Source of the DNA: an uncultured Chloroflexia bacterium
GTDB lineage: Bacteria; Chloroflexota; Limnocylindria; Limnocylindrales; CSP1-4
Direction: 5' to 3'
Length of the DNA: 64,000 nt
Assembly (NCBI GenBank): GCA_963720755.1
Contig: CAVRGP010000006.1
Coordinates: 220,387-284,386, forward strand
The notes beneath the pieces are model-generated. The model was given only the letters and a program-made list of their open reading frames with translations, made no database searches and was not told where the DNA came from. Position numbers and translations under genes: made by a program. Numbering within the stretch: the first letter of the stretch is position 1; every line of letters begins with the position of its first letter. Below are positions 42,272 to 62,258 of this stretch, piece by piece.

Positions 42272-42326
42272 TCCCAGGCACGGGCGGCGTCACCGGACCG
42301 GACCCGCGCGCCTCGAGGGTGTCTCG

Positions 42327-44033: not shown

Positions 44034-44944
44034 CGTTCTCCTCGAACAGCTACGGTCGGTTCTGGTCTTGATTCGCTCCGGCGAGCGGCGGCCTGGCGCT
44101 CCGCGGCCCGGATCAGGTGGGTGAGCAGCAGGGCATTCGTCAGCGGCCCGACCCCACCCGGGACAGGAGTGATCGCCGAGGCGACCTTGACGGCGGACGG
44201 CAGATCCACATCGCCGACGATGTGACCGTCCACCACGTTGATCCCGACGTCGACGACGACCGCGCCGGGTTTGAGATCGGCGCCGGTGATCAGCCCGGGC
44301 CGGCCCGCCGCGACGATCACGATGTCGGCCCGCCGAACGTGGGCGGCGAGGTCCGTGGTCCTTGAGTGGCAGACCGTCACGGTCGCGTCCTCGCGGACGA
44401 GGAGGAACGCCGCCGGCATGCCGACGACCGCGGACCGACCGATGACCACGGCCTCGCGCCCGGCGATCTCGATCCCCGAACGGCGAAGGATCTCGATGGC
44501 GGCGTGGGCGGTGGCCGGAAGGAACCCGTCGTACCCGAGCCGGAGCAGCCCGGCGTTGAGCGGGTGGATCCCGTCGATGTCCTTGGCCGGGTCGATCGCG
44601 TCGACCACCTCGCGCAGGCGGATCGTCGGAGGGAGCGGCATCTGGACGATGACCCCATCGACCGTCGGATCCGCGTTGAGTCGGCGGATTGCGGCGACGA
44701 CGGTGCGCTCGTTCGCCTCCCCTTCCAGTTCGACGAACTCCGCCTTGATCCCGACCTTGGCGCAGCCGCGGAGGATCCGCTCCAGGTAGACCGTGGATGG
44801 AGCGTCACGACCGACGATGACGACCGCGAGGCCGGGGGGTCGGCCGTTGGCGGTGGTGAAGGAGCTGACGTCTTCGGCGACCGCGGTCCGGATCTCGTCG
44901 GCGATCGGCGCGCCTTCCAGGAGACGGGCGCTACGATCCGCCAT
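44030..44944 (-). CDS. folD: Methylenetetrahydrofolate dehydrogenase/cyclohydrolase
   Basis: KDIDG, IGRS.VVG.P, DVGIN, TPVPGGVGP. Confidence 0.95.
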   Translation of the reverse strand: MADRSARLLEGAPIADEIRTAVAEDVSSFTTANGRPPGLAVVIVGRDAPSTVYLERILRGCAKVGIKAEFVELEGEANERTVVAAIRRLNADPTVDGVIVQMPLPPTIRLREVVDAIDPAKDIDGIHPLNAGLLRLGYDGFLPATAHAAIEILRRSGIEIAGREAVVIGRSAVVGMPAAFLLVREDATVTVCHSRTTDLAAHVRRADIVIVAAGRPGLITGADLKPGAVVVDVGINVVDGHIVGDVDLPSAVKVASAITPVPGGVGPLTNALLLTHLIRAAERQAAARRSESRPEPTVAVRGER

Positions 44945-44947
44945 CGA

Positions 44948-45646
44948 TCAGGCGAGGTCGGCGGCGCTGTCCGACGCGACGTCCGGCGCCGGGATCGGTT
45001 CTCGGGCGATGCCACTCCCGACCGCCTCGTGCGTCTCCGATGCCAGCCGTTCGACATCGTGGAGCAGCCGCGTGACCCGCTCCATGGTCGTCTGCTCAAA
45101 GGCCAGGTCGCCGATCGAGGGGAGGTTGATCAGGACGTTCGCCGCCGCCCCGCGCGCCGCTGCCTCGCCGAGGAGCGCGGCCACGTCGAGGTCGCTCGAG
45201 GCGTGCGGGTTGCTTCGCCCCGCAAGGGCTTCCGAGATCTCGACCAGTTCCAGGCAGGCTTCGACACAGGCATACGGGACCTCGGTCGCGGATCGAGCCG
45301 CGGCCCGAAGTGCCTGCGCCCGCGACTCGCGCTGCTCGTCGGTCTCACGGGGGAGCTTCATCGCGGCAGCAAAGCCACCGTAGGCCGTGGAGTCATCGTC
45401 CGCCAGAACGAGGAACCGATCAGCGAGGCGCCGGCCCGACTCGGCAGCCCACCGCAGCAGGTCGTCGTGTTCGGCGTACTTCGCGCGACCAAGGGATAGC
45501 CCGGCGACCATCGCCACCAGGCTTGCCCCGAGGCTTCCGGCGATCGCCGATGCGCTCCCGCCACCCGGCACGGGATCGGACGACGCGAGCCGCTCGACGA
45601 ACTGGTCGACGGTCAGGTCGCGAAATCTTGTGTCGTGCGGTTCCAC
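44948..45646 (-). CDS. Formiminotetrahydrofolate cyclodeaminase/cyclohydrolase family protein
   Basis: F...[17 protein letters not shown]....SD, NVLINL. Confidence 0.9.
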
Positions 45647-45796
45647 CCGCCGATTGTACGGTTGCGAGCCGGTCGGGGTCCGGAGGGTCGCGCAGCGTGG
45701 GAAGTGTCGGAGGACGGGGCGGGCGCGGTACCGGCGCACCCACCCCGCACTCTCGACTGTCGGCGGCCCGGGAGGGAGGGTCCCGGCCGCCAGGGA

Positions 45797-46128: not shown

Positions 46129-46183
46129 AGAACGTCTGTTCGGTTATGGCGCGAGACTAGACCGAACAAGTGTTCGATGTCAA
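46129..46183 (-). promoter_or_regulatory. Promoter with two LexA (Cheo-type) boxes
   Basis: AGAACGTCTGTTCG (46129-46142) and CGAACAAGTGTTCG (46163-46176); minus-strand TTGACA-18-TAGTCT. Confidence 0.85.
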
Positions 46184-47487
46184 GCCTCGTCGAACGGAAT
46201 CTCGTCCACGTCCGTGTCACCTTGGGTGTCACGCGTCGGTGACCCCGCCTCCTCCGATCCGCTCGCCACGCCCCGGGCCCGTCGGTCCAGCGGGTTCCGA
46301 GGATCTCGCTCGAACGGTGCCGGCAGATCAGCCCCGAGAAGTCGGGCCCGGGTGACGGTCCCCTCCCCGTACCGCCGCCGGAGGGAATCGGCCGCCTCGA
46401 CGGCTCGCCGGCGACGAGGGTCGGTGGCATCGAACAGCGCGAGTTGCTCGCGTTCCCCGAGGTTCGAGGCCGTCACACCGAGCAATCGGACCCGCATCCC
46501 ACGCAGTTCCGGCCGGGCCAGGTCGAGCGCGGTCGCGTAGATCGGGTCGGTCAGGTCGGTCGGCTCGGCCAGGGTCCGCTGGCGGGTGATCGTGCGAAAA
46601 CCGTCGTCGCGGATCTTGACCGTGACCGTGCCCGCCCTGACCCCGGCCGAGCGCAGTCGCCCGGCCACGCCCTCGGCCATCGCCAGGAGCGTTCGTTCGA
46701 TGACTTCCGGGTCGCTCGTGTCGACATCGAAGGTGTGTTCGTGGCCGACCGACTTGGCCGGATCGCCGTCGTGGACCGGATCCGGGTCGATGCCGCGGGC
46801 TCGCTCGACGAGCGACGCCCCGTGCTTGCCGAAACGGCGCACGACCAGGTCCGGCGGCAAGCCGGCCAGGTCGCCGATCGTGCGGACCGAGTACTCGGCC
46901 AGCGCCGCCGCCGTCTTCTCGCCGACTCCCCACAGCCGGCCGATCGGGAGCGGCGCCAGGAACGCCGCCTCCTCCCCGACCGGGACGACCACGAGTCCGT
47001 CCGGCTTCCGCAGGTCCGATGCGACCTTGGCCACGAGCTTGGTGCTCGCGACCCCGACCGACGCAGTCAACCCGACCTCCGTGCGCACCTCGTCCTTGAT
47101 CCGACGGGCGATCGCCGGCCCATCGCCGAACAGGGCGAATGACCCAGTGACATCGAGGAAGGCCTCATCGATCGAGATCGGCTCGACCAGTGGCGTGAAG
47201 CGTCGCAGGATCCCCATGACATCGCGACTGGCCGCCTGATAGCGGCGACCGTCGACCGGCAGGAAGACGGCATCGGGGCAGCGCCGGTACGCCTCACGCA
47301 GCGACATCGCCGAGTGGATCCCGAACTGGCGCGCCTCGTAGCTGGCGGCCGACACCACGCCACGGGCGTCCTCTCCACCGGCTCCCCCGACGACGACCGG
47401 GCGCCCGCGCAGCTCCGGCCGGTCGCGCTGTTCGACGGCAGCGAAGAACGCATCGAGATCGACATGCAGGATGGTCCGCTCGGTCAT
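46180..47487 (-). CDS. dinB: DNA polymerase IV
   Basis: HVDLDAFFAAVE, SYEAR.FG, SIDEAFLD, KPDG, LWGVG. Confidence 0.95.
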   Translation of the reverse strand: MTERTILHVDLDAFFAAVEQRDRPELRGRPVVVGGAGGEDARGVVSAASYEARQFGIHSAMSLREAYRRCPDAVFLPVDGRRYQAASRDVMGILRRFTPLVEPISIDEAFLDVTGSFALFGDGPAIARRIKDEVRTEVGLTASVGVASTKLVAKVASDLRKPDGLVVVPVGEEAAFLAPLPIGRLWGVGEKTAAALAEYSVRTIGDLAGLPPDLVVRRFGKHGASLVERARGIDPDPVHDGDPAKSVGHEHTFDVDTSDPEVIERTLLAMAEGVAGRLRSAGVRAGTVTVKIRDDGFRTITRQRTLAEPTDLTDPIYATALDLARPELRGMRVRLLGVTASNLGEREQLALFDATDPRRRRAVEAADSLRRRYGEGTVTRARLLGADLPAPFERDPRNPLDRRARGVASGSEEAGSPTRDTQGDTDVDEIPFDEA

Positions 47488-47507
47488 GGCCGCTATCATC
47501 GTCCGCT

Positions 47508-49496
47508 GTGACACCCCCCGCGGCGACGGCCACCCGGGGGTTCGCGCTCGCCGTCGTGGCGGCCGTCCTTGTGGCTGCCCTGATCGCCTGGGCGATCCCG
47601 ATCTCGGCGGTCGTCCTGATCTGGCCGATCCTGTTCTTCGTTCCCGGTTGGGTCGTGATCCGTCGAGTCGTGCCCGACCTGCCGACTCCGGGCGCCGTCG
47701 GCGGGGCGATCGTCACCAGCGCGTACGTGTCCGCCCATCTCGTCGACGTCGTGGCTCGGGTGACCGGGTTCGGGCGCGAGTCGGTCATCGTCAGCGCCGC
47801 CGGTCTGGCACTTGCATCGATCGCCATCGCGCGCATCGATCACCGTTGGCTGGAACCGATCCCCCGGCCGACCATACGATCGACGCTTTCGACCCTCCGC
47901 TCGGACGCGCCCGCGTGGCTCGTGGCGATCGCGGCGGGTCTGGCCGTCCTCGTCGTCCTGATGGTCAACGGTTGGGTCGCGACGCCGGACGGCTGGGTGG
48001 CGGGTGGCTGGAACTGGAGCGACCTGCTGGTCCACGTGTCGATCGGCTCGAGCATCGCCGCCGGCAACTTCCCGCCGGACGTGCCCTACTTCGCCGGTGA
48101 GCCCCTGACGTACCACTGGTTCGCCGACTTCCACGGCGCCATCACCTCGACGGTGGCGGGCGTGGATCTGATCGGGACCTACTTCGCGACGAGCGCACTG
48201 TTCGCCGGCGTCCTGGCCCTGGTCGTGTGGGCACTGGCCCTGCGGCTGACGGGACGCCAACGGGTCGCGACGATCGCCGCGATCCTGGTCTGCTTCGGCG
48301 GTGGTTTCGGCTGGATCCGCCTGGTCGGCGACGTGATGGCCGGGATGGGCGGAGTCGTCCACCTCATCAGTCGGACCTCGTACGACAACACCTGGGCGGA
48401 CGGCTGGCCGTACTTCAAGATCGCGTCGATCTTCGGCACCGGATTCCTGCCCCACCGGGCGACCACGCTCGGGTTGCCGGGACTGGTCACGGTCGTCCTG
48501 ATCGTGGTGTCGAGCGTCGGACGGCGTCCGCTTGGCGTGCTCCTGGCCGGTGTCCTGGCGGCGCTTCTCGCCCCGTTCCAGTTCTTCGCCTTTCCGGCCA
48601 CCTACCTGATCGTCGGGCTGTACGTCGTGACCTCGGGCGCCTGGCGGACGCGAACCGTCTGGCGCGACGCGGCCCTGTTCCTGGCGCCGGTCGTCCTGGC
48701 TGCGCCGTTCATCCTTGCGGCGATCGGGAAGCAGAGCGACATCGGGTCATTCCGGTTCGTCCTCGGCTGGAGCGAGGCCCGGATCGACGACGGTCCCTGG
48801 GCGGTGGCGTTCTTCTACCTGACCAACCTGGGGCTCCCGTTCATCCTCGCGGCGGTCGCTGCGTTCACCGCCCGTGGCCTGCCCCATCGCGGGTTCCTGG
48901 TGGCCTGGATGATCGCGCTGTTCGTCGTCCCCAACGTCGTCGTCGTGAGCGCGGTCGAGTTCGACATGAACAAGTACTTCCAGATCATGTGGATCGCCGT
49001 GGCCATCCTCGCGGCCTGGCTGATCCATCGATGGCGCGTGTGGGCGATCGTCCTGGTGATCGGCGTCTCGGCGCTGTCCCCGGCCCTCATCGCCGGATGG
49101 CACCTGCGCTCGCACGACATCGCGTTGACGCTGCCGCAGGCGACGGCGGCCCGCTGGATCGCGGCCAATACCCCGGAACGATCGGTATTCATCACCGACG
49201 CGTTCATCAACAGTCCGGTCGACCTGGCGGGACGCCTCCGGATCACGACCTTCGGACCGTACGTCTCCAACCTCGGCTACGACCCGGCAGCGCGCGAGGC
49301 AGATACGCACGCCATCTACTGCGACGGAGCGGACATCGCGGCGGAGCGGATGGCGGCCTATGGCGCGACGTATGTCCTGTCGAGCGGCGGCATCCCATGC
49401 GGTGGTGACGTGGGCACGGACTTCGGCACGAGCGACCGGTTCGAAACGGTCTACGACGTCGACGGCGTCACGATCTGGGCGTTGCGGGACCCGTGA
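47508..49496 (+). CDS. Multi-pass membrane protein, GT-C glycosyltransferase-like
   Basis: Many TM segments; NWSD..H, NFPP..PYFAGE.L.YHW; C-terminal WI..NTP motif. Confidence 0.65.
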   Translation: MTPPAATATRGFALAVVAAVLVAALIAWAIPISAVVLIWPILFFVPGWVVIRRVVPDLPTPGAVGGAIVTSAYVSAHLVDVVARVTGFGRESVIVSAAGLALASIAIARIDHRWLEPIPRPTIRSTLSTLRSDAPAWLVAIAAGLAVLVVLMVNGWVATPDGWVAGGWNWSDLLVHVSIGSSIAAGNFPPDVPYFAGEPLTYHWFADFHGAITSTVAGVDLIGTYFATSALFAGVLALVVWALALRLTGRQRVATIAAILVCFGGGFGWIRLVGDVMAGMGGVVHLISRTSYDNTWADGWPYFKIASIFGTGFLPHRATTLGLPGLVTVVLIVVSSVGRRPLGVLLAGVLAALLAPFQFFAFPATYLIVGLYVVTSGAWRTRTVWRDAALFLAPVVLAAPFILAAIGKQSDIGSFRFVLGWSEARIDDGPWAVAFFYLTNLGLPFILAAVAAFTARGLPHRGFLVAWMIALFVVPNVVVVSAVEFDMNKYFQIMWIAVAILAAWLIHRWRVWAIVLVIGVSALSPALIAGWHLRSHDIALTLPQATAARWIAANTPERSVFITDAFINSPVDLAGRLRITTFGPYVSNLGYDPAAREADTHAIYCDGADIAAERMAAYGATYVLSSGGIPCGGDVGTDFGTSDRFETVYDVDGVTIWALRDP

Positions 49497-49507
49497 GGTT
49501 CGGGCCG

Positions 49508-49954
49508 CTAGCCCTTCGGCTCGACGATGATCGTGACCTCGGGGGTCATGCCCGTGAACACCTTGATCGCGACCTTGTAGGTGCCGAGCGTCTTGAGCGG
49601 CTCCTCCAGGTCGATCTTGTGGCGATCGACCTCGATCCCGCGACGGGCCAGCGCGTCGGCGATGTCCTTGGACGTGATCGAGCCGTACAGCTTGCCGGCC
49701 TCGCCGACCTTGACGCCCATCGTCAGGGTCGTGCTGGCGATCCGGGTCGCGGCGATCTCGGCTTCCTCGCGCTCTCGTTGGCGCTTGTCCTCGCGGCTCG
49801 CGATGTCGTGCTGCCAGGCGCGGTATGCACCGCCGGCCGCCGGGACCGCCAGCTTCTGCGGGATGAGGAAGTTCGTCGCATAGCCGTCCGCGACCTGCTT
49901 CATCTCACCGCTCTTGCCGACCTTCGGCACGTCCTTCGTCAGGATGACCTTCAC
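49508..49954 (-). CDS. rplI: 50S ribosomal protein L9
   Basis: [29 protein letters not shown]. Confidence 0.97.
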
Positions 49955-50439
49955 GCGCTGCGATCCTCCTTGGTGATCCAGGCCCGCGTTCGCGGCACCA
50001 GACCGGTCTGTTTCATGGCGTCGGCGATCCCACCGACGAGCTCGGGGACCCGGCGGATGGTCCGCCGGACGGGACTTGGCGTCAAGCGCCGGACCTGGGC
50101 GACGTCGCGATCGAATTCGGCCCGGGCGATCCCGAGCTCGGCGAGCTTCTCATCAAGGAGGTCGTCGGGCACGCCGTCGAGGAAGAGTTCCGCGGCCAGG
50201 ACGATCACGATCAGGTCGTCCAGCCCGCCGATGATCGGGATGTCATCCGGGATGAGATCCCGGCCAAGGACGAGGTACCCGGCCGCCCCGACGAGGAGTG
50301 CCTTGCGCTGCCTCGGCATGCGTTCGTCCATCACCAACGAGGTGATCAGCCGGGTGTACATCGGCACGCGACTGGCGATCGGCAGGAACGCGAGCAGCGA
50401 GAGGGCACGACCGATGCCGGCCCCGCCCCTCGAACGCAT
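49951..50439 (-). CDS. DUF1232/YkvA family protein
   Basis: [15 protein letters not shown]. Confidence 0.85.
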
Positions 50440-50531
50440 GCTGCGCGTCTCGTCGCCTCTGCCCACGCTGTACCTCCACTCCCGGGTCGGGAGTCTACCA
50501 GCCTCATGACCGCGGGCCACCTGTCCTCACC

Positions 50532-50559
50532 TTGACATCGAACGTCCGTTCGTTATCAT
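50532..50559 (+). promoter_or_regulatory. lexA promoter with autoregulatory SOS box
   Basis: TTGACA (50532), CGAACGTCCGTTCG (50539-50552), TATCAT (50554). Confidence 0.88.
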
Positions 50560-50578
50560 GCTTGACAAGGAGGCGCGA

Positions 50579-51229
50579 GTGACCAAACACGACGCCGAAC
50601 GCAAGGTCAAGATCCTGGACTTCATCGCCGCGACGCTACGGGCGCGCGGCTATCCGCCGTCGGTTCGTGAGATCGCCCGGGCTGTCGGGCTGGCCTCCAC
50701 CTCGGCTGTCCATCACCACCTCCAGATCCTCGAGCGCGAGGGGTACCTGGAGCGCGGCGCCGCCCAATCGCGGGCCATCCGGTTGACGCCGACGGCGGCG
50801 ATCCGCCTGGGCCTGACGAGCGAGCTCGTGCCGCAGGCGACGGCCGGTGACGCCAGGGTGGTGCCGATCATCGGGGAGATCGCCGCGGGCGGACCGATCG
50901 AGGCCTACCAGGACGCGACGGAGACGATGGCGATCCCGGACGTCCTCGCGCCGGGTGGGGACGCCTACGTCCTCCGGGTGCGCGGCGATTCGATGATCGA
51001 GGCCCACATCGCGGACGGTGATTTCGTCCTGATCCGCCCCCAGACCACCGCGCGCAACGGGGACATCGTCGTCGCCCAGGTGGAAGAGAACGCGGTCACG
51101 CTGAAGCGCTTCTTCAAGGAGAAGGACCAGGTCCGGCTCCAGCCGGCGAACCCCGCCTATCCCGTCCAGTTCTATGACGACGTCCGGATCCAGGGAAAGC
51201 TGATCGGCGTCATCCGCCGACTCGACTAG
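50579..51229 (+). CDS. lexA: SOS repressor LexA
   Basis: GYPPSVREI, IAAG cleavage site, VRGDSM, TLKR; AAGGAGG RBS. Confidence 0.97.
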   Translation: MTKHDAERKVKILDFIAATLRARGYPPSVREIARAVGLASTSAVHHHLQILEREGYLERGAAQSRAIRLTPTAAIRLGLTSELVPQATAGDARVVPIIGEIAAGGPIEAYQDATETMAIPDVLAPGGDAYVLRVRGDSMIEAHIADGDFVLIRPQTTARNGDIVVAQVEENAVTLKRFFKEKDQVRLQPANPAYPVQFYDDVRIQGKLIGVIRRLD

Positions 51230-51249
51230 CGGGCACCCTGGATCGGCCG

Positions 51250-51318
51250 TTGGGGACGGTGGATATCAACAGGACTGTCCACATCCGGTCCACGCGGGTG
51301 GAAAGTTCGTGGACGATC
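51250..51318. promoter_or_regulatory. Cluster of DnaA-box-like 9-mers upstream of dnaB
   Basis: ATATCAACA (51263), CTGTCCACA (51275), CGGTCCACG, and reverse-strand ATATCCACC, CTTTCCACC, TCGTCCACG. Confidence 0.5.
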
Positions 51319-51407
51319 GGGTCGGCCGGATCCCAGTTCGTGGAGGCGCGGCCGGCCCCGTCTCTGACAATGAGAGACCCCCCTTCGCTGACGGAGCCCG
51401 CCTCGAC

Positions 51408-52757
51408 GTGATCGACCGCCTGCCGCCCCAGAGCCTCGAAGCCGAGCAGTCGGTCCTGGGCGCCCTGCTCATCGATCGTGACGCCGTGATCGAGGTCGCC
51501 GAGTTCCTCCGCCCGGCGGACTTCTATCGCCAGGCGAATGCCCGGATCTACGCGGTCGTGCTCGACCTGTACGAGCGGCGCGAGCCGATCGATATCGTCA
51601 CGGTGGCCGAATCCCTGGAACGCCGCGAGGAGCTCGAGGCGATCGGTGGGCGGGCCTACCTGTCGAGCCTGTCCAACGAGACGCCGACGGCCGTCCACGT
51701 CGCCCAGTACGCGCGGATCGTCGAACGGAAGGCGGTCCTCCGGAACCTGATCGGGGCCGCCGGGCGGATCGCCGGGATCGGCTACGAGGACCCCGCGGAG
51801 ATCCAGGAAGCGATCGACCGTGCCGAATCTGAGCTGTTCGCTGTCAGCCAGAAGCGCGTCGATGCCGGGTTCAGCCCGCTCAAGTCGCTCCTGCACGACG
51901 CCTACGACCGGCTCGATTACCTGCACGCCCACCGAGGCGAGATCAGCGGCGTCCGGACCGGTTTCACGGACCTGGACACGCTGACGACCGGGTTGCAGAA
52001 GAGCGACCTCGTCGTCCTCGCCGCCCGGCCCTCCGTCGGCAAGACGAGTTTCGCGCTCAACATCGCGGAGCATGCGGCCGTTCGCGAGCGCAAGCACGTC
52101 GGGGTCTTCAGTCTGGAGATGAGCAAGGAGCAGCTCGTCCTCCGGCTGCTCTCCAGCGTCGCCAATATCGACTCCCAGCGGCTCCGCTCGGGGTTCCTTG
52201 AGGAGCTCGACTTCGCCCGCATCGCACCGGCGATGAACGCCCTGTCGGAGGCGCCCGTCTATATCGATGACACGCCGAACATCTCGGCCATGGAGCTTCG
52301 GACGAAGGCGCGGCGGCTCCAGGCAGAGGCGGGTCTGGACCTGGTCATCGTCGACTATCTCCAACTCATGCAGGCCACGACCACCAACCGCGACGCGAAC
52401 CGGGTCCAGGAAGTCTCGGAGATCTCCCGCGGACTGAAGGCGCTGGCCCGCGAGCTGTCGATCCCGGTCATCGCCCTCTCGCAGCTGTCTCGCCAGCCGG
52501 AGATGCGCGAGTCGAAGGAGCCCCGCCTGTCCGATCTTCGAGAGTCCGGCGCGATCGAGCAGGACGCGGACCTGGTGATGTTCCTGTGGCGCGACAAGGA
52601 GCGCGGTCAGGACGACCAGGACCAGGAAGGCGAGGTCATCAACCTCAAGCTCGCCAAGCACCGTAACGGACCGACCGGCGAGATCCAGTTGTGGTTCAAG
52701 AAGCGCCAGACACGCTTCGTGAGTTATGCCGGCGAGCGCTACGCCGAGGCGGGCTGA
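51408..52757 (+). CDS. dnaB: Replicative DNA helicase
   Basis: PPQSLEAEQSVLG, AARPSVGKT, DYLQL, SDLRESGAIEQDAD. Confidence 0.97.
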   Translation: MIDRLPPQSLEAEQSVLGALLIDRDAVIEVAEFLRPADFYRQANARIYAVVLDLYERREPIDIVTVAESLERREELEAIGGRAYLSSLSNETPTAVHVAQYARIVERKAVLRNLIGAAGRIAGIGYEDPAEIQEAIDRAESELFAVSQKRVDAGFSPLKSLLHDAYDRLDYLHAHRGEISGVRTGFTDLDTLTTGLQKSDLVVLAARPSVGKTSFALNIAEHAAVRERKHVGVFSLEMSKEQLVLRLLSSVANIDSQRLRSGFLEELDFARIAPAMNALSEAPVYIDDTPNISAMELRTKARRLQAEAGLDLVIVDYLQLMQATTTNRDANRVQEVSEISRGLKALARELSIPVIALSQLSRQPEMRESKEPRLSDLRESGAIEQDADLVMFLWRDKERGQDDQDQEGEVINLKLAKHRNGPTGEIQLWFKKRQTRFVSYAGERYAEAG

Positions 52758-56600: not shown

Positions 56601-56908
56601 CCCTCGACTTCGAGTACGAAGAGTGGGCCGCCCCGTACAGAGACTGGCTGCACGCGTCGTATCTCGAGATTGTCGAACGGGCGGTAACACGCGATCTCGA
56701 AACCGGCCACTTTGACCGCGGCATCAAGCTTGCCAGACGCGCGATGGACATCGATCCCGACGCCGACAACATCGAGGTGTCGTTGATCCGCTTGTACCAC
56801 GCCAGCAGCGCACACAACGCGGCAGCCGAGCAGTACGCGCACTACGCCAACTCGGTCCGCGACCAGCTCGGAATCGAACCACCTACCCTCAATTCGTTGT
56901 GGGGATAG
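53663..56908 (+). CDS. Large STAND (MalT-like) ATPase/TPR regulator with C-terminal wHTH and BTAD domains
   Basis: ADAGYGKTT, LILDDFH, TEGWAA, RYHPL; C-terminal ALLCFLL...RDQVLDALWP...NSLNQTVYFLRR and BTAD-like helices ending LGIEP. Confidence 0.85.
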   Translation: MSGYPIQPTKVQSPPLRDQTLARDRLLDWLAARIHDRVILLLADAGYGKTTLLADFSRRTRVRTLWYRLDEDDRDWVPFLSHIVAAGREHDPGFAPRTTALLGDMALGGPTREAATDVLIRELPTISEQGAALILDDFHLVDGSADVRFIVKELIARAPERLSIIFASRRAPTIPLAQMRSAGELSELRTDDLRFDVAETKRLFTETYGRDLDADVIADVAARTEGWAASLQLVQAALRDRSPAETRRFVRSLSGADQELYDYLAEEVVGDLETDLQDFLMRTSILQFVTADLAAVAADIAPPEVTRLTVAAERLTLLSRPPRSSRGPQRYHPLVRQFLEARLRTTIGDTAIANLHRRVADAASEHDWRTAAHHYREAGEYHSLSNTIAGAIPEIMGSGQHAIAADAIDRVPHESRLPILGLVTSRVQMQRRDYDPAIKEAHAILEMVQPGSQESDYALLNLVTFYLQAGLGRHSLPLAERLRQTTSSEHLRLIAEGTGLMIDATFEGSIDAMSTHLKTMARHQQDVHPHYYGVTMLNLALTSMIQDDPQSAVDAADAAIDALENTSSSMELSAAFMARGYALTLLGQHDQSRHAIARAAEFDEVEAAYERADLADSFIEPEAAAPMLQALDASSDAYARPYHVIQSAWFLARRNRFKEAQLVLEQSQQGDGVLMGHATVRRVTAAYVAVASESSAAPRLIEEAWKVSRDQGATRWRRAAELLRAVSGSTSDLNSTIRNVGSVSPWTLTLLADLVSRRLDDIDMLAISAVQSAAALHPGRWRFVLRRRVSETSAEGSLAAARLLETIGQKQDVQLLRSFARLHRRQPGVSNLGRTLARRLADPVVVEDQGRVAMVVGERNISGSTIRRKVLALLCFLLTRPGLSSTRDQVLDALWPDLDPPDAVNSLNQTVYFLRRVIEERYVDDLSPGYLHHDSDLIWLDPELISSRSNECRMLIQALPVEPTPDQVATLVETYHGRFALDFEYEEWAAPYRDWLHASYLEIVERAVTRDLETGHFDRGIKLARRAMDIDPDADNIEVSLIRLYHASSAHNAAAEQYAHYANSVRDQLGIEPPTLNSLWG

Positions 56909-56921
56909 GTAAGGTTGCGTA

Positions 56922-56951
56922 TTGACCGGTTCACTCGCCGGTCCATATAGT
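56922..56951 (+). promoter_or_regulatory. Putative promoter of the riboswitch/peptide/HD-GYP operon
   Basis: TTGACC (56922-56927), 18 nt, TATAGT (56946-56951). Confidence 0.65.
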
Positions 56952-56996
56952 CCCGGGACTTCGTAGTACTCCAGTACTAGGAAGCCAAGTCAATAC

Positions 56997-57068
56997 GCTC
57001 GGACGCGCTGAAGCACCACCTGAAATGGGCACTTGGGGTGGAGCAGAGCGAGTAGTGCAACCGACCGA
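56997..57068 (+). ncRNA. c-di-GMP-II riboswitch
   Basis: TCGGA...TGAAG...GGGCACTTG...GAGC.AGTAGTGCAACCGAC; GCAC/GTGC pseudoknot pair; P1 TCGG/CCGA. Confidence 0.82.
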
Positions 57069-57090
57069 CCACAAGTCAGGTCGGTTTTTG
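57059..57090 (+). terminator. Riboswitch expression-platform terminator
   Basis: AACCGACC-GAC-CACAA-GTC-A-GGTCGGTT-TTT; overlaps the aptamer 3' strand. Confidence 0.78.
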
Positions 57091-57129
57091 TGTTCCTTGG
57101 AACACGAAGGCCGCGAAGGAGGATCGAGC

Positions 57130-57162
57130 GTGAATCCGGAAACGATCAGCAAGGGCTGGTAG
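57130..57162 (+). CDS. Possible 10-aa micro-ORF (MNPETISKGW)
   Basis: AAGGAGG at 57116-57122, 7 nt before GTG. Confidence 0.35.
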   Translation: MNPETISKGW

Positions 57163-57173
57163 AGGGCCTTCCA

Positions 57174-57263
57174 ATGAAGGCCAAGATTTCGCGAATCATG
57201 GTGGCGCTAATAAGTGTCGCTTTGGTCGCGGTGGCTGGCGGAGCGTCATTACGAGGCTTCTAG
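57174..57263 (+). CDS. 29-aa putative signalling-peptide precursor
   Basis: MKAKISRIMVALISVALVAVAGGASLRGF: basic N-region, hydrophobic core, GGA, short polar/aromatic tail; GAGGG upstream. Confidence 0.75.
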   Translation: MKAKISRIMVALISVALVAVAGGASLRGF

Positions 57264-57337
57264 TACGTTTGGATTGATTACCAAGCAGAGCTGTAGGTAA
57301 TACAGTCGTTGCTGATCGTCCACGTACGGGGCAGTAG

Positions 57338-58738
57338 ATGCCGCAATCGCTAAAAGCCTACGTCACGGGAGTCGTGACCCTGAGTGCTCTCGCACTCGTG
57401 GTTGCGACTCTTGTGTTTCCCGCTGGTCCGGGGATCGCGCTTGGCGCCAGCGGACCCGTACCAACCATTTCCGAAATCTGGCTAGGCGTCGCGTTCTGGA
57501 TCGTTCTCACGCTCATTGCATCCGCGTTGCCGGTCAAACTGCCGATGGGCACGCACCAGGCTGTTGCCATGGCACCCCTCATCGCCGCGATGTCGTTGGG
57601 CGGACCGGCCGTCGCTGGATGGGTTGCAGCGCTAGGTTCCACCGAAGCTCGCGAGCTTCGAGGTCGCATCCCTTGGTATGGGTCGCTGGTCAATCATGCC
57701 GGGGCGACACTGCCAGCAATTCTCGGCGGTGTGGTAAGTAGCGTGATCCTGCGGGTCGCCGGACAATCTGGGCGGCAGGACCTTGGGATCGACCTGATCG
57801 CCACACTTGCGGGGTCGGCAGTCCTGCTCGGCTTGAACACTGCTATCGCCGCGGGCGTGCTCGCGTTGAGAACCGAGCAGCCCTTCGCAACCGTGCTCGG
57901 AGGCGACTACCGAGCCACAGCGTTCAACAATCTCGCGCTAGTCCCACTGGGTTGGCTCATGGCGCTCGTGTACTCGACCCTCTGGTGGGCAACACTCCTC
58001 TTCGCCGTACCGCTGTATACGACTCGGATGGCGTCGGTGCGGTTCGTGGAGATGCGCGACATGTTCACGCAGACGATCGGGGCCCTGGCGGCTGCTGTGG
58101 ACAAGCGAGATCCATTCACGGCGGAGCACAGCCGGAACGTGAAGACGATCTCGGTCGATATCGGGCGGGTCATGCGGCTCAGTGACGCGGAGCTGGAAGC
58201 CCTCGAGTGGGGGGGCCTGCTCCACGATATCGGGAAGATCGGCATTCCGGACAACGTCCTCAAGAAGCCTGAGCGCCTGACCCGAGAGGAACGGATGATG
58301 ATGAATGCGCACCCGGTCAAGGGTGCCGAGATCATCGAGCCGGTCGCCAAGTTGGCCGCGGAACTGCCGATCATCCGACACCACCATGAGTGGTACAACG
58401 GCTCGGGCTACCCGGACCGTTTGATCGGCGACGAGATCCCGAAACTGGCCCGCATCCTGCACGTGGCCGACGCCTTCGAGGCGATGACCGCAGCTCGACC
58501 CTATCGCATGACCCCGTTGACCCCGGAGATCGCACTCGCGGAATTGCGCAAGTTCGCCGGCGTGCAGTTCGACCCGGTCGTGGTCGATGCATTCGTCCGG
58601 ACGCGTCACGCCGATGGGGTGGCGGACGCCGGACGCACGCCCGAGCCTCGACAGATCCCGCTGATCGCCCAGGCTGCGGAGCGCATGGCGATGCCCAGCT
58701 CCGGGCCTGCCCCAGGCTCGCCGACCGATCTCGGCTGA
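57338..58738 (+). CDS. Membrane-sensor HD-GYP cyclic-dinucleotide phosphodiesterase
   Basis: About 7 N-terminal TM segments; DPFT..HS, LLHDIGK, HHEWYNGSGYP, VADAFEAMT..RPY, QFDP. Confidence 0.92.
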   Translation: MPQSLKAYVTGVVTLSALALVVATLVFPAGPGIALGASGPVPTISEIWLGVAFWIVLTLIASALPVKLPMGTHQAVAMAPLIAAMSLGGPAVAGWVAALGSTEARELRGRIPWYGSLVNHAGATLPAILGGVVSSVILRVAGQSGRQDLGIDLIATLAGSAVLLGLNTAIAAGVLALRTEQPFATVLGGDYRATAFNNLALVPLGWLMALVYSTLWWATLLFAVPLYTTRMASVRFVEMRDMFTQTIGALAAAVDKRDPFTAEHSRNVKTISVDIGRVMRLSDAELEALEWGGLLHDIGKIGIPDNVLKKPERLTREERMMMNAHPVKGAEIIEPVAKLAAELPIIRHHHEWYNGSGYPDRLIGDEIPKLARILHVADAFEAMTAARPYRMTPLTPEIALAELRKFAGVQFDPVVVDAFVRTRHADGVADAGRTPEPRQIPLIAQAAERMAMPSSGPAPGSPTDLG

Positions 58739-58819
58739 GGCGACCGACCGCTCCACCGCCCACCCGAACCCTCGCTGGCTGCCTCATGATGCAGCCGTGA
58801 ACGCCGTACAACGCTGCCC

Positions 58820-60847
58820 ATGCTGATCGGCGGCATCGCGCTCGGGCTGATCCTCGGCCTGCTCGTCGGCGGCAGCATCACGAACCTCGCCTACATCCAC
58901 CTGCGCCGTCTCCGGTTGCTGCTGGTCGCGGTGGCACTCCGGTTGGCGACCGACTACCTGCTCAACGCAGGCTTCCCGATCGTCGAGCAGCTCCGAGTGC
59001 CGCTACTCGCAGCGGCGTACGCCCTGCTCCTGGTCGCGCTATGGGCGAACCGCGGGTACCCGGGCATGAGCCTCGCCTTCATCGGCGTCCTGTCGAATGC
59101 CGTGGTCATCGTGATCAACGGCGGCTACATGCCGATCTACCTGCCCAGCCTGGAACTGGCCGGACTGACCCAGGCTGACATCACGTCGGCCCTCCATTCG
59201 TTCCTTCCCGCAGCCCTCGATGCGAACTTCCTGCTCCACCTTGGCCCGTTCTCGGACGTCATCCCGATCCCCTTCCCGATCGTCCAGAACGTGGCTTCGG
59301 TCGGGGACGCGTTCCTGACCCTCGGCCTGGCGTTCTTCCTGTTCGCGGGTGTCGTTCGGATCCCGCATGAACTCGACGAGGAGCAACTCGCCGCGATCAA
59401 ACGGCGGCTCGCCAACGCGTCTCACTCGCGTCGACCGCGGCGCGCCGGCGATCCGGGCGCCGAAACGGGCCTGTCGCCGGCCTTCGCGGGTGCCGTTGCC
59501 CTGGAACGCCCGCTCATGCTCGGCAGTGCGGGGGCCGGCCTTGCGTCGCCGTCCATGACGTCGTTCGAGAGCGACGCCGCCGCCGTCTTCCCGGAGCCGT
59601 CGGACACGCTCGTCCGGGTCCGCCAGCACCCATACGTTCGGCTCGCCCTCAACGGATCGTTCTCGGCGCTGTGGGCCGGTCAGCTCATCTCGCTGTTCGG
59701 CGATCGACTGAACCAGCTCGCGCTCGTCGCGGTCGTCCTCATCTCGACCGGGTCGACCCTTGCCAGCGGGTTGGTGTTCTTTGCGGCCACGCTCCCGAAC
59801 CTGCTCCTGAGCCCGATCGCCGGGACATTCGTGGACCGATGGGATCGCAAGGAGGTGATGATCGTCAGCGACGTCCTGCGGGCGGCGCTCGTGCTCATCC
59901 TGCCGATCGTCGCCGTATGGAACCTGCTGCTGGTCTACCCGCTCGTCTTCCTGGTCACCAGCATCTCCGTGTTCTTTCGGCCCGCTCGGGTGGCCATCCT
60001 GCCGCGGGTCGTGCCCGAGGAGGACCTGCTCAGCGCGAACTCCGCGCTGTGGGTCGGCGAGACCATCGCCGATATCGTGGGGTACCCCCTGGCCGCAGCG
60101 TTCGTGGCCGTCCTCGGTTCCTCCGTGCCGCTTGCGTTCTGGGTCGATGCAGCGACGTATCTGGCCTCAGCAGCCCTGATCAGCACGATCGTCCTGCACG
60201 CAGCGCCCGCGAGCGACGTCGAGACCGGTACGGGTGCGGGGTTCCTCGCGGAGATGGCTGCCGGCTGGCAGTTCCTGCGGCACGAAACCGTGCTGCTCGC
60301 GAACACACTCCAAGGTGTGGCCGGCCAGTTCAGCCTCGGGATCACGATCGCCCTGACGCCGGCCTTCGTCGAGGTCGCCTTCGCCGACTCCGGATATCGA
60401 TGGCAGGCGGTCTACGGATTCCTCGAGGCGGGGATCGGGCTCGGAAACCTCGTCGGTGGATTCATCATCGGACTCCTCGGCACGCGCTTCGCGAAGGGTC
60501 GGATGGTGATCATCGGGTACACCGCCTGGGGCCTCTCCATCTTCCTGTTCGCCTTGTCGGGCAATGTGGCGGTCGCCCTCGGACTCGCGTTCGGCCAGGG
60601 TGTCGCGAACATGATCTTCATCATCCCGAGCCAGACCCTGTTCCAGGAGCGCACGCCGGCCGCGCTGATGGGTCGCGTCGTCGGGTTCCGGTTCGCGCTC
60701 GTGTTCGGTTCGATGACCTTCGCGATGGCGATCGGCGCCATCTTCGGGCAGATCGTCGGAGCGGCGCCGGTCATGGCGGTCTTCGGGCTGGTGACCGTCG
60801 CGGCTGGGCTCGCCGGGATGCTCGTCCCGGCGGTTCGTGATGCCTGA
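58820..60847 (+). CDS. DUF5317-like membrane domain fused to an MFS transporter
   Basis: N-terminal SNAVVIVINGGYMP...DVIP...SVGD; linker; then F.ALW.GQLIS.FGD, AGTFVDRWDRK and MGRV of a 12-TM MFS. Confidence 0.82.
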   Translation: MLIGGIALGLILGLLVGGSITNLAYIHLRRLRLLLVAVALRLATDYLLNAGFPIVEQLRVPLLAAAYALLLVALWANRGYPGMSLAFIGVLSNAVVIVINGGYMPIYLPSLELAGLTQADITSALHSFLPAALDANFLLHLGPFSDVIPIPFPIVQNVASVGDAFLTLGLAFFLFAGVVRIPHELDEEQLAAIKRRLANASHSRRPRRAGDPGAETGLSPAFAGAVALERPLMLGSAGAGLASPSMTSFESDAAAVFPEPSDTLVRVRQHPYVRLALNGSFSALWAGQLISLFGDRLNQLALVAVVLISTGSTLASGLVFFAATLPNLLLSPIAGTFVDRWDRKEVMIVSDVLRAALVLILPIVAVWNLLLVYPLVFLVTSISVFFRPARVAILPRVVPEEDLLSANSALWVGETIADIVGYPLAAAFVAVLGSSVPLAFWVDAATYLASAALISTIVLHAAPASDVETGTGAGFLAEMAAGWQFLRHETVLLANTLQGVAGQFSLGITIALTPAFVEVAFADSGYRWQAVYGFLEAGIGLGNLVGGFIIGLLGTRFAKGRMVIIGYTAWGLSIFLFALSGNVAVALGLAFGQGVANMIFIIPSQTLFQERTPAALMGRVVGFRFALVFGSMTFAMAIGAIFGQIVGAAPVMAVFGLVTVAAGLAGMLVPAVRDA

Positions 60848-60943
60848 TCGGATCGCGTTCGAACGGGGGTACGGCGCCTTCGGTACACTGGCGCCCGCAC
60901 GAGGACCGACGATCGGGGCCGCTGCCAGGAGAGACACGACCGA

Positions 60944-61596
60944 ATGAGCGAACGACCCGAAGGCACGCCGGAGGAGGCGCCCGCCGACCCCGCCGAGCCC
61001 ACGGAGGCACCGCCGGTCGAGCCCGAACCCGAGGTGACCGCGGCGCCGGAGGCCTGAGCCGGAACCCGAGCCTGAGCCGGAGCCCGAGCCTGAGGTGGAG
61101 CCCGAGCCGGAACCGGAGCCTGAGCCGGAACCAGAATCCGAGCCGGACATCGAGCCGATGGTCGAACCCGAGTCGGCGGCGGTTGCGGCGGCGGCCACGA
61201 CGAAGGGGAAGCGGGGATCGGCTGGCCCGACGGCCCGACCACTGACACCGGGCGAACGGGCCGCCAAGATGACCGAGAACCCGTCGCGGATCTTCGTCAT
61301 CGCCAGCGTCGCGATCTTCGTGGTCATCATGCTGTACGGGCTGCTCGGCGGCCACCACGGTCTGCTCACGACCAAGCCGACACCCGCACCCACGCCCATC
61401 GCGAGCGAGCCGGCCGTCAGCGCATCGCCGTCGGCCTCGGCGGGTGCCAGCGAGTCACCGGCGGCTTCCTCGTCCGCGACCCCGTCCGCGGCCGTCCGCA
61501 TCGGCGGCTCCGTCCGAGTCCGCGGCGCCTTCAGCGTCGCCGGAAGCCAGTCCGTCTGCCGCCCCGTCGGCTGAGGCCTCGCCCAGCCCGTCCTGA
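60944..61596 (+). CDS. Low-complexity single-TM protein (EP repeats, Ser/Ala/Pro tail) with two apparent frameshifts
   Basis: GGAG RBS; MSERPEG... shifts frame near 61050 and 61495. Confidence 0.55.
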
Positions 61597-61613
61597 TCCC
61601 GTTGGAGGGACTC

Positions 61614-62258
61614 GTGGACCTTGATCGTGCCCGAGCTGCGATGGTCGCGGACCAGCTGCGGGCTCGCGGCGTCAGGGACGAACGCGTCCTTGCGGCGATG
61701 GGCGCGATCCCACGCGAAATGTTCGTGCCCGAGGCCCTCCGCCATCGGGCCTATGCGGATGAGGCGCTCGGGATCGAGGCCGGCCAGACGATCAGCCAGC
61801 CGATCATGGTCGCCAGGATGACCGAGGACCTCCGGGTCGAGCCAGGCGACCGGATCCTGGAGATCGGCACCGGGTCCGGCTACCAGGCGGCGATCCTCGC
61901 CTGGCTCGGGGCAGCCGTCACCTCGCTCGAACGGCATGCCACGCTCATCCCGGCGGCGCGTGCCCGGATCGACGCCCTGGAGCTGGCGGGCACGGTCGAC
62001 ATCCGGCTGGCGGACGGCAGCCTCGGCGACCCGACCGGTGCACCGTGGGACGGGATCATCGTGACGGCCGCCGCACCCTCGATCCCGGAGGCACTCCGCA
62101 CCCAGCTCGCCGAGGGCGGCCGCCTGGTCATCCCCGTCGGCAGCCACGACAAGCAGTTGCTCACGATCGTCACCCGCCACGGCAACGACTGGCTGGAGAC
62201 GTCGGACGGTTGGTGCATCTTCGTCCCGCTCATCGGGGCAGCGGGCTTCGATCGGTGA
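61614..62258 (+). CDS. pcm: Protein-L-isoaspartate O-methyltransferase
   Basis: GQTISQP, LEIGTGSGYQAA, IIVTAA, FVPL. Confidence 0.95.
   Translation: MDLDRARAAMVADQLRARGVRDERVLAAMGAIPREMFVPEALRHRAYADEALGIEAGQTISQPIMVARMTEDLRVEPGDRILEIGTGSGYQAAILAWLGAAVTSLERHATLIPAARARIDALELAGTVDIRLADGSLGDPTGAPWDGIIVTAAAPSIPEALRTQLAEGGRLVIPVGSHDKQLLTIVTRHGNDWLETSDGWCIFVPLIGAAGFDR

Follow-up and report, generated by a model that had tools for sequence, protein, structure and literature searches.

A putative class II c-di-GMP ON riboswitch leading a micropeptide and HD-GYP phosphodiesterase operon in uncultured Chloroflexota

A class II c-di-GMP riboswitch aptamer was located in the leader of an operon-like gene group of an uncultured Chloroflexota bacterium, in a 64-kb stretch of DNA (64,000 nucleotides; the window in the following). 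The best explanation of the locus, to which a probability of about 0.8 is given, is that the riboswitch works as an ON switch by antitermination and leads an operon of two micropeptides, an HD-GYP phosphodiesterase and a DUF5317-MFS protein; high c-di-GMP would then induce its own degradation. The riboswitch class is a known one, newly placed in this uncultured lineage; a literature search found no report of a class II switch in Limnocylindria-like Chloroflexota. The element is thereby placed in Chloroflexota of soil and fresh water, in Limnocylindria-like genomes, where it is a constant component of a conserved operon. Should the switch indeed be of the ON type, the locus would represent a clean loop of a messenger inducing its own degradation, in a lineage without a cultured model, and would supply a compact high-GC aptamer–terminator pair for biochemistry. 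Coordinates are collected in Table 1.

Table 1: Features of the riboswitch locus, in window positions.
Feature	Position	Strand	Remarks
Upstream regulator gene, 1129 aa	53519–56908	+	13 nt between its end and the −35 box
Sigma-70-type promoter, TTGACC, 18-nt spacer, TATAGT	56922–56951	+	promoter scan, 10/12 matches
5'-Terminal leader hairpin, 11 bp, CUUCGUAGUAC / GUACUAGGAAG	56959–56984	+	
c-di-GMP-II aptamer	56992–57075	+	RF01786 match, 65.6 bits vs gathering score 53.5
Aptamer P1	56997–57002 / 57065–57070	+	Rfam assignment
GGA; UGAAG	57001–57003; 57009–57013	+	aptamer hallmarks
Aptamer P2	57004–57006 / 57048–57050	+	
Aptamer P3	57013–57020 / 57037–57044	+	
GGGCACUUG; GUAGUGCAACCGAC	57027–57035; 57052–57065	+	aptamer hallmarks
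Pseudoknot GCAC / GUGC	57029–57032 / 57055–57058	+	
AACCG pocket bases	57059–57063	+	
Intrinsic-terminator-like hairpin	57059–57069 with 57075–57086, A57078 bulged	+	minimum-energy register
U run UUUUU	57085–57089	+	follows the terminator-like hairpin
Second conserved hairpin	57089–57106	+	directly behind the U run; read-through transcripts only
Shine-Dalgarno AAGGAGG (57116–57122) and ORF1 (GTG 57130 to TAG 57162)	57116–57162	+	
ORF2, 29 aa, MKAKISRIMVALISVALVAVAGGASLRGF	57174–57263	+	
Structured spacer, long hairpin GUACG to CGUAC	57264–57337	+	UAnAGU box conserved; window sequence TACAGT
HD-GYP protein gene, 466 aa	57338–58738	+	Pfam HD_5, 5.7e-39
DUF5317-MFS fusion protein gene, 675 aa	58820–60847	+	81 nt past the HD-GYP stop

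The RF01786 covariance model was aligned over its full length (positions 1–84 of 84) with an E value of 1.9e-12 in a search of the 64-kb window on both strands (1.6e-14 when 521 bases around the aptamer were scanned). This search with the Rfam c-di-GMP-II model had been proposed as a check by the sequence-only reading, and the score exceeds the curated threshold; the class II hallmark sequences listed there were all found at the positions that it had given. The whole window gave two Rfam matches only, RF01786 and a tRNA; between 56900 and 57420, at E ≤ 1, RF01786 was obtained alone, with no second family. At the aptamer it was the top scorer of its Rfam clan, and lower-scoring clan matches were discarded.

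Pairing was evaluated on 73 aligned leaders. In total, 91.6% of the cells were paired, against 28–43% with the partners slid (the structure was taken from the window sequence as aligned by Rfam, and the slid-partner control somewhat favours it); both sides were changed in 17 pairs, against 8.8 in shuffles, and none of 500 shuffles reached 17. By helix: P3 – 94.0% paired, both sides changed in 5 of 8 pairs; P2 – 98.2% paired, with changes on one side only; P1 – 82.4% paired, both sides changed in one pair, with one conserved C·C mismatch inside the helix (0/67 cells paired). All four pseudoknot pairs were present in 73/73 sequences; being invariant, they give no covariation support. The membership in c-di-GMP-II that had been read from the letters is thus upheld by the score, by covariation in the helices and by the intact pseudoknot. 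Folding of the 111-nt leader as a whole was not unusual (z = −1.63; 15/200 shuffles as good). The AACCG stretch was invariant in the 73 leaders, the exceptions being L014 and L028 (second A to C). In structure 3Q3Z, A69, A70 and G73 contact c-di-GMP (PMC13715770); judged from the motif spacing, the AACCG bases probably correspond to them. Taken by its sequence, the RNA is a genuine class II aptamer, with c-di-GMP as the predicted ligand.

Related loci were the best 80 among the matches listed, from reference genomes whose titles name Chloroflexota or Candidatus Limnocylindria; an HD-GYP relative was encoded in at least 571 of 598 candidate stretches of the reference-genome collection. The RF01786 threshold was passed at the same place in 67/80 loci (53.6–72.1 bits), with the HD-GYP gene lying about 345 nt downstream; six further loci hold a whole aptamer copy below the threshold, and seven are cut or without upstream sequence. 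Within these best 80 loci the switch was found wherever upstream sequence exists. By nhmmer the leader was detected in 76/80, the four misses having less than 310 nt upstream. Gene order is likewise kept: HD-GYP – 80/80, DUF5317 – 76/80, MFS – 74/80; upstream regulator (tblastn) – 68/80. A chance resemblance, or a functionless decayed relic, is practically negligible as an explanation: the E value is very small, P3 shows compensatory changes, and the element has stayed in place although the HD-GYP proteins of the relatives are only 59–74% identical to that of the window. Conservation and covariation together refute a chance match.

The promoter is conserved as well: each base of TTGACC at 18-nt spacing was kept in 71–73 of 75 aligned rows (a few rows were mis-anchored at contig ends), together with a −10 box of TAnAGT type. 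The 5' leader hairpin begins about where transcription from this promoter should start; it appears in minimum-energy folds, 88.1% of its cells were paired in the 73 leaders, and both sides were changed in 5 of 11 pairs. Its reading as a DNA operator only was rejected, as the outer stem covaries and G-U pairs occur solely on the + strand. For the post-terminator hairpin 94.3% of the cells were paired, with both sides changed in 6 of 7 pairs. Rfam returned no family for either of these hairpins or for the spacer that separates ORF2 from the HD-GYP gene (56900–57420).

The sequence-only reading had further claimed that the aptamer 3' strand is also the 5' arm of an intrinsic terminator. This was borne out: the arm is made of the AACCG pocket bases and the 3' strand of P1 (57059–57070), the Rfam P1 3' strand falling within the hairpin arm of the minimum-energy register. 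The hairpin has −15.3 kcal/mol (z = −2.39; equalled by 4/200 shuffles). The terminator scan gave a stem at 57063–57086 followed by a T-rich tail, a result weak by itself (2 terminator-like sites per 1.5 kb vs 0.9 expected). In the 73 leaders the 11 terminator pairs were formed in 99.3% of 803 cells, against 8–46% with slid partners; the hairpins have a median of −14.8 kcal/mol, and the leading T run is 4–5 in 68/72. No terminator pair was changed on both sides in the 73 leaders, and since the aptamer fixes the 5' arm, the conservation could partly reflect aptamer constraint.

Because bases 57059–57069 serve both structures, aptamer and terminator are mutually exclusive: one aptamer strand is common to a downstream intrinsic terminator, and either the one or the other can be folded. 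Evaluated energies were −11.1 kcal/mol for P2 and P3, −12.5 kcal/mol with P1 added and −26.4 kcal/mol for the terminator state. In stepwise folds a P1-like helix lasted to base 57078, and at 57086 the terminator had replaced it. Ligand-stabilised folding should therefore, by the sharing of these bases, prevent termination. The arrangement is probably that of an ON switch, and an ON response, whose direction and size we infer, is predicted.

According to the preferred mechanism, transcription would start from the TTGACC-18-TATAGT promoter and the RNA would open with the 5' hairpin, followed by the aptamer. With no ligand, the weak P1 (4 pairs, the conserved C·C mismatch, 1 pair; ca. −1.4 kcal/mol) would yield, 57059–57069 would pair with 57075–57086, and the hairpin of −15 kcal/mol with UUUUU would stop transcription near 57089. 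With c-di-GMP bound, pocket, pseudoknot and P1 would retain the shared bases, no terminator would form and the polymerase would continue; kinetic control is probable, because the U run ends only about 19 nt past the aptamer's end. The read-through RNA would carry, in this order, the second hairpin, a strong Shine-Dalgarno sequence, ORF1 (..KGW), ORF2 (..GGASLRGF), the spacer, the membrane HD-GYP protein and the DUF5317-MFS protein, likewise of the membrane.

The U run is short (4–5 U; 5–6 U within 8 nt). Hence a different reading, in which hairpin and U run form an inefficient terminator in this organism and the aptamer acts otherwise (RNA stability, Rho) or in a direction that is not ON; its points are the U run of only 4–5, the terminator arm without independent covariation and the two extra conserved hairpins (56959–56984 and 57089–57106) without assigned role. 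It is considered quite improbable, as the 3' arm GUC-n-GGUCGGUU plays no part in the aptamer and is nevertheless paired in nearly all cells. Translational control was rejected: the Shine-Dalgarno sequence of ORF1 sits 27 nt past the U run and takes part in no aptamer-linked pairing.

Under the antitermination mechanism, high c-di-GMP would induce its degrading enzyme (negative feedback) together with the two micropeptides, and such feedback via the HD-GYP protein is plausible. The sequence-only reading had placed a peptide gene and an HD-GYP gene downstream on the same strand; both kinds were found there, but the conserved peptide ORFs number two and not one. In the HD-GYP protein all metal-binding H/D residues are conserved, as is the GYP motif: 26 homologs share H264, H296-D297, H325, H348-H350, E351, G357-Y358-P359 and D378 without exception. 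Its N-terminal domain is a multi-pass membrane domain, weakly MASE9-like (E 0.01; in homolog P0016, 25.9 bits vs cut-off 24.3). PDB matches of the HD-GYP domain: 5z7c – 1.7e-30, 4mcw – 2.3e-24, 4r8z – 8.1e-20. The protein is a predicted c-di-GMP phosphodiesterase. The best solved-structure match, 5z7c, is a phosphodiesterase specific for 3'3'-cGAMP; 4mcw and 4r8z are c-di-GMP-active. That the aptamer senses another cyclic dinucleotide, e.g., 3'3'-cGAMP, and that the HD-GYP protein degrades it, would accord with this top match and with the binding of cGAMP isomers by a class II aptamer engineered through a single deletion (PMC13715770). The reading is nonetheless very improbable: the canonical RF01786 outscores the other families of its clan, the AACCG stretch and the pseudoknot have the canonical, invariant form, and the matches to the two c-di-GMP-active proteins are likewise strong. 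In a scan of 51 ORFs of the window, no GGDEF or EAL gene was recognised.

The DUF5317-MFS protein gave Pfam matches to DUF5317 (1.9e-24), MFS_1 (2.4e-17) and MFS_3 (3.3e-17), and the fusion is one continuous ORF in 70/74 loci. For the DUF5317 part, ESM Atlas returned DUF5317 clusters alone, and a literature search for DUF5317 found no paper. The upstream regulator has an N-terminal MalT-like STAND ATPase and a C-terminal OmpR-type winged helix with BTAD; Pfam: BTAD 5.7e-10, Trans_reg_C 4.2e-05 (under its cut-off) and AAA_22; NCBIfam: a partial MalT match (1.4e-55), far under the model cut-off. Terminator-like sites were absent outside coding sequence from ORF1 to the end of the DUF5317-MFS gene; in a scan of 58600–61700 none lay in the gap between the HD-GYP and DUF5317-MFS genes, sites being present within the ORF only.

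The spacer ahead of the HD-GYP gene starts with TAGTAC in 51/76 loci. Folded singly, 40 of 40 spacers gave the long hairpin, with energies between −23.5 and −43.7 kcal/mol. When 44 spacers were aligned with MAFFT and passed to RNAalifold, no consensus pairs resulted, so the structure rests on single-sequence folds. In this alignment the TAnAGT columns are near-invariant and the flanks vary. The 74-nt spacer might hold an internal promoter whose −10 box is TACAGT, or TAGAGT in most relatives, and from which the HD-GYP and DUF5317-MFS genes would mainly be expressed; the switch would then chiefly gate the micropeptides, and c-di-GMP feedback on the phosphodiesterase would be weak or absent. The invariance of these columns amid variable flanks fits such a promoter, as do the unusual T-A-n-A-G-T(-C) form, shared with the main −10 box (TATAGTCC), and a −35-like box, A[TC]nA[CT]N, found 17–19 nt upstream of TAnAGT in 33/76 loci. 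This −35-like box is absent from the other 43, the consensus promoter scan reported no promoter in the spacer, and the TAnAGT box falls within the long hairpin in all 40 spacers tested, so that TAnAGT may rather belong to an RNA structure. Moreover, with no terminator-like site after ORF2, riboswitch read-through should reach the HD-GYP gene anyway, and co-transcription that far would be expected. The internal-promoter idea is half supported by the sequences, and as the main source of HD-GYP expression such a promoter is unlikely; since the box resembles the main −10, part of this expression may bypass the switch, which would soften the feedback.

Founding examples of RF01786 came from Clostridia, the solved structure being 3Q3Z, and Clostridioides difficile has a class II ON switch ahead of pilA1, its type IV pilin gene. 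With the family the window aptamer shares the full-length match, the same helices, the GCAC/GUGC pseudoknot, the AACCG pocket and the sense-strand position in a 5' leader; it differs from the model in lacking the outer 5 of 11 P1 pairs, in the conserved C·C mismatch within P1 and in a P3 loop UGAAAU in place of the consensus UgUAUuU. As in the C. difficile class II ON switches, the ligand is thought to block a terminator, so that c-di-GMP turns genes on; the cargo here, however, is a phosphodiesterase operon with two micropeptides, not adhesins or pili. Class I (GEMM-I) riboswitches adjoining GGDEF, EAL or HD-GYP genes were reportedly described by Sudarsan et al. in 2008, and with these the present locus would share the setting of a second-messenger switch over an enzyme of the messenger's own turnover (homeostatic loop), although the aptamer fold is unrelated. 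Passages of PMC9495176 describe class II members as ON switches and class I members as mostly OFF switches. The class II hosts named there are Clostridia and Deinococcus, which agrees with the earlier statement that Clostridia are the best-known hosts of class II; the present host, a high-GC uncultured member of Chloroflexota, is neither.

ORF1 comprises 10 codons (MNPETISKGW) and ends in K-G-W; AGGAGG and the GTG/ATG start are conserved in relatives, and an ORF of this type, of 9–10 aa and ending in K-(G/A/P)-(W/F/Y), is present in 69/76 loci. In ORF2, GGAS is invariant and the C-terminus reads L-(R/K)-G-F; its codon-position entropies were 0.875 / 0.537 / 1.542 (76 loci), G22 and G23 are invariant, and F29 is found in 71/76 loci. 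The ORF2 product has the look of a signal peptide or of a membrane peptide with a single pass. Neither ORF2 nor the repeat-bearing versions of ORF1 gave a Pfam or NCBIfam family, the sole matches being far under cut-off. Both ORFs share the C-terminal motif S/G-(L/I/V)-(K/R)-G-(F/W/Y).

The micropeptides are the unexplained part of the locus. Conserved and unannotated behind the switch, their genes point, by the common C-terminal motif and the recurrent tandem amplification, to a peptide function tied to c-di-GMP. The micropeptides, and not the enzyme, might be the first and best-translated cargo of the riboswitch; c-di-GMP would then gate the production of a peptide that serves as signal or ligand, with Sec or the DUF5317-MFS protein as its exporter and the MASE9-like domain or the STAND-BTAD regulator as its sensor. 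The idea is held to be unlikely; if true, it would couple an intracellular second messenger to peptide-based signalling in an uncultured class of Chloroflexota.

Phr/SHP-type precursors of Firmicutes are exported, and their C-terminal 5–8 residues form the signal. ORF2 appears to resemble them in general layout only, being short, basic at the N-terminus and hydrophobic in its core, with small residues (A-x-A / G-G-A) and a conserved pentapeptide at the C-terminus; it showed no Pfam or NCBIfam homology that would make it a Phr/SHP-like precursor, and no RRNPP-type receptor or oligopeptide permease (Opp) was recognised among the genes of the locus. ORF1 differs from such precursors in that it has a similar C-terminus but no signal peptide. 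In ORF2 this tail stands behind the signal-peptide-like segment; the leaderless ORF1 has been amplified repeatedly in tandem and in-frame (L052, L035 and L033; 2 units in L074).

The class II cyclic-di-GMP riboswitch model of Rfam (RF01786) matched the window at 56992-57075 (forward strand) with 65.6 bits over 84/84 model positions (curated gathering score 53.5; E 1.9e-12, computed for the 64-kb window, both strands). The sequence-only reading had proposed a c-di-GMP-II riboswitch, probably an ON switch, controlling a c-di-GMP phosphodiesterase operon; the covariance-model match confirms the identity, all class II motifs named in that reading were found in place, and its overall reading is supported, the finding being real. 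By every computable criterion the element belongs to the c-di-GMP-II family. Only one other Rfam match was obtained in the whole window, a tRNA at 19606-19677 (reverse strand); a permissive scan of 56900-57420 gave no family besides RF01786 at E ≤ 1. Of the eleven P1 pairs in the model, the outer five are absent from the Rfam alignment. As described for 3Q3Z, a solved class II structure, the c-di-GMP guanines are recognised by A69 and G73, with A70 intercalated between the two (PMC13715770); AACCG at 57059-57063 would map to A69/A70/G73, with fitting A-A-C-C-G spacing.

A consensus scan gave a promoter and a terminator-like stem; terminator-like sites numbered 2 vs 0.9 expected, a count not significant alone. 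Folding of 57055-57095 gave a hairpin of -15.3 kcal/mol (z -2.39; 4/200 shuffles as good). Because 57059-57069 pair with 57075-57086, the 5' arm contains both AACCG and the P1 3' strand; the earlier proposal that the aptamer 3' strand doubles as the terminator 5' arm thus holds. Evaluated energies (56992-57095) were -11.1 kcal/mol for P2 + P3, -12.5 kcal/mol with P1 added and -26.4 kcal/mol for P2 + P3 + terminator; in stepwise folds, a P1-like helix persisted until the transcript reached 57078, and the terminator stood in its place at 57086. Folding of the whole 111-nt leader was not unusually good (z -1.63). As modelled, the aptamer and terminator states exclude each other, the ligand-free default is termination and the geometry is that of an ON switch: in the absence of ligand the terminator would form and transcription would stop before the peptide and HD-GYP genes. 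By computable criteria the expression platform is predicted to work by antitermination, as an ON switch.

Features of the riboswitch locus (window coordinates)
Feature	Position	Strand	Remarks
Promoter, TTGACC-18-TATAGT	56922-56951	+	consensus scan
5' hairpin	56959-56984	+	expected transcript 5' end; 88.1% paired, 5/11 pairs compensatory
P1	56997-57002 / 57065-57070	+	Rfam alignment
P2	57004-57006 / 57048-57050	+	Rfam alignment
P3	57013-57020 / 57037-57044	+	Rfam alignment
Pseudoknot	GCAC 57029-57032 / GUGC 57055-57058	+	named in the sequence-only reading
Terminator-like stem, then T-rich tail	57063-57086	+	consensus scan
Terminator hairpin	57059-57069 / 57075-57086; UUUUU 57085-57089	+	A57078 bulged; fold of 57055-57095
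Second hairpin	57089-57106	+	directly 3' of U run; 94.3% paired, 6/7 pairs compensatory
Shine-Dalgarno AAGGAGG	57116-57122	+	strong; 7 nt 5' of GTG; conserved
ORF1, MNPETISKGW	57130-57162	+	10 codons
ORF2, MKAKISRIMVALISVALVAVAGGASLRGF	57174-57263	+	29 codons
Spacer ORF2/HD-GYP	57264-57337	+	74 nt; long hairpin in 40/40 loci folded
HD-GYP protein	57338-58738	+	466 aa; Pfam HD_5 5.7e-39
DUF5317-MFS protein	58820-60847	+	81 nt after HD-GYP gene

Among 8000 scored candidates, 6122 homologs of the 466-aa HD-GYP protein had E ≤ 0.001; the best 120 were 69-79% identical. An alignment of 26 homologs served as query for a scan of reference genomes (one per species), in which a relative was encoded by at least 571 of at least 598 candidate stretches; the 80 best of these at least 571 were retained as loci (labelled L). 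Nearly all carry record titles naming Chloroflexota, Chloroflexia or Candidatus Limnocylindria/Limnocylindrales (a few do not), and the genomes of these Chloroflexota-type records were assembled from metagenomes; G+C of the window is about 60-71%. RF01786 was above threshold in 67/80 loci (53.6-72.1 bits; 16/18, 16/19, 15/18, 18/20 and 2/5 in the first to fifth batches), and its distance upstream from the HD-GYP match was about 300-480 nt (mostly ~345 nt) in 66/67 and ~1190 nt in L001. The 13 misses comprised four loci with <310 nt of upstream sequence (L023, L060, L071, L076), three truncated by a contig end (L018, L022, L077) and six whole sub-threshold copies (L009, L035, L043, L049, L055, L078) with intact core motifs and nhmmer E-values of 1e-23 or better; with a profile from 17 leaders, the element was found in 76/80 loci. 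L001, the closest DNA-level relative among the 80, carries ~750 extra bases in its HD-GYP gene (3827-4574), whose N-terminal domain appears twice, the mark of a partial duplication or else of a chimeric assembly. The leaders of L014 and L028 (aligned to window 57059-57089) read C for the second A in AACCG, the pocket stretch; their U runs are also the weakest (TTCC.., CTCTT..), and both pass the Rfam threshold (65.3 and 67.1 bits).

For covariation, 73 leaders (-50 to +150) were aligned, after exclusion of four loci whose upstream sequence was too short. The combined structure was paired in 91.6% of cells vs 28-43% with partners slid 1-3 columns; pair changes on both sides numbered 17 vs 8.8 in column shuffles, 17 being reached by 0/500. 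Compensatory change was seen in 5/8 pairs of P3; in P2 (98.2% paired) all changes were one-sided, the four pseudoknot pairs showed no variation, and P1 was 82.4% paired, with an internal C.C mismatch paired in 0/67 cells. The 11 terminator pairs were formed in 99.3% of 803 cells vs 8-46% when slid, with no compensatory change among the 73 leaders, as expected because the aptamer holds one arm constant; the 3' arm has no aptamer role, yet is conserved, which therefore argues for the hairpin. A simple pattern recovered it in 72/73 leaders (median -14.8 kcal/mol); the leading T run was 4-5 long in 68/72, short for a terminator.

The 5' hairpin has an invariant UAGUAC/GUACUA core. Immediately 5' of the -35 box, GATAGGTAAGGTGCCGTA (56904-56927) is kept across loci and overlaps the stop codon of the upstream STAND-BTAD regulator gene; its GGTA and CGTA, 11 nt apart, would fit a winged-helix activator site.

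The unexpected part of the locus is the pair of conserved micropeptide genes, first under the switch's predicted control. ORF1 has 9-10 codons and a K-(G/A/P)-(W/F/Y) end in 69/76 loci; in some it is longer, the unit being repeated in frame, with units ending TKGW or TKGF in L052 (3728-3817, period 27 nt, 3.3 copies, 98% identity), L035 (1223-1292, 21 nt, 3.3 copies, 97%) and L033 (3759-3827, 27 nt, 2.6 copies, 80%); L074 has two units. In ORF2, entropies at codon positions 1/2/3 were 0.875, 0.537 and 1.542, and the GGAS codons vary freely at their third position but at neither of the first two, a wobble pattern that reads as the signature of a translated gene. Its basic N-terminus, hydrophobic core, small residues and conserved tail give the apparent layout of a signal peptide or single-pass membrane peptide. 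The GGAS-L-(R/K)-G-F tail is invariant, and its last five residues, S-L-(R/K)-G-F, resemble the ORF1 end. Neither ORF matched a family in Pfam or NCBIfam, and ORF2 would probably escape gene callers. The common C-terminal motif and recurrent in-frame amplification of ORF1 suggest, speculatively, a peptide product with its own function.

The spacer before the HD-GYP gene contains TAGTAC at the ORF2 stop. Its hairpins (-23.5 to -43.7 kcal/mol, 40 loci) have stems differing in sequence among loci; joint alignment gave no consensus fold, and 57264-57337 matched no Rfam family. A near-invariant TAnAGT box within it shares its unusual form with the -10 of the main promoter, TATAGTCC; a -35-like box stands at the proper distance in only 33/76 loci. 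The TAnAGT box may be an internal promoter giving partly riboswitch-independent enzyme expression, or a site of RNA processing or binding.

HD, HHHE, GYP and other metal ligands are invariant among 26 homologs of the HD-GYP protein. Its solved-structure matches were 5z7c (3'3'-cGAMP-specific enzyme; 1.7e-30), 4mcw (2.3e-24) and 4r8z (c-di-GMP phosphodiesterase; 8.1e-20). Its hydrophobic N-terminal part (230 residues) has a weak resemblance to MASE9 (E 0.01); one homolog passed the MASE9 Pfam cut-off. A c-di-GMP-induced phosphodiesterase loop is a plausible prediction; c-di-GMP riboswitches reportedly (Sudarsan et al. 2008) sometimes precede genes for synthesis or breakdown of the messenger itself. 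No GGDEF or EAL gene was found in the 64-kb window, a result confined to the window.

The terminator scan gave no site between the HD-GYP and DUF5317-MFS genes. The latter is one continuous ORF in 70/74 loci, its MFS part being an MFS_3-type transporter; the fusion is a context clue for this domain of unknown function, of which no mention was found in the literature searched. Gene order is conserved in relatives (tblastn, 80 best loci: regulator 68/80, HD-GYP 80/80, DUF5317 76/80, MFS 74/80, isoaspartyl methyltransferase 52/80), shortfalls falling mostly at contig ends.

Class II switches are typical of clostridia and deinococcus and act as ON switches (PMC9495176); the sequence-only reading called them best known from Clostridia. 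Literature searches returned no report of c-di-GMP-II in Chloroflexi, a survey-table listing being possible, nothing on Limnocylindria with c-di-GMP and, by title or abstract, nothing on Chloroflexota c-di-GMP riboswitches. The element is a new c-di-GMP-II member in a lineage for which no report was found.

Elsewhere in the window lie two class III adenylate/guanylate cyclase genes (1980-3659 and 31824-32642), a histidine-utilisation and folate cluster (29294-45739; urocanase, aromatic amino acid lyase, formiminotransferase, FTHFS) and, upstream of the regulator gene, clustered genes for a Y-family DNA polymerase (IMS family), LexA and DnaB helicase (46180-52757).
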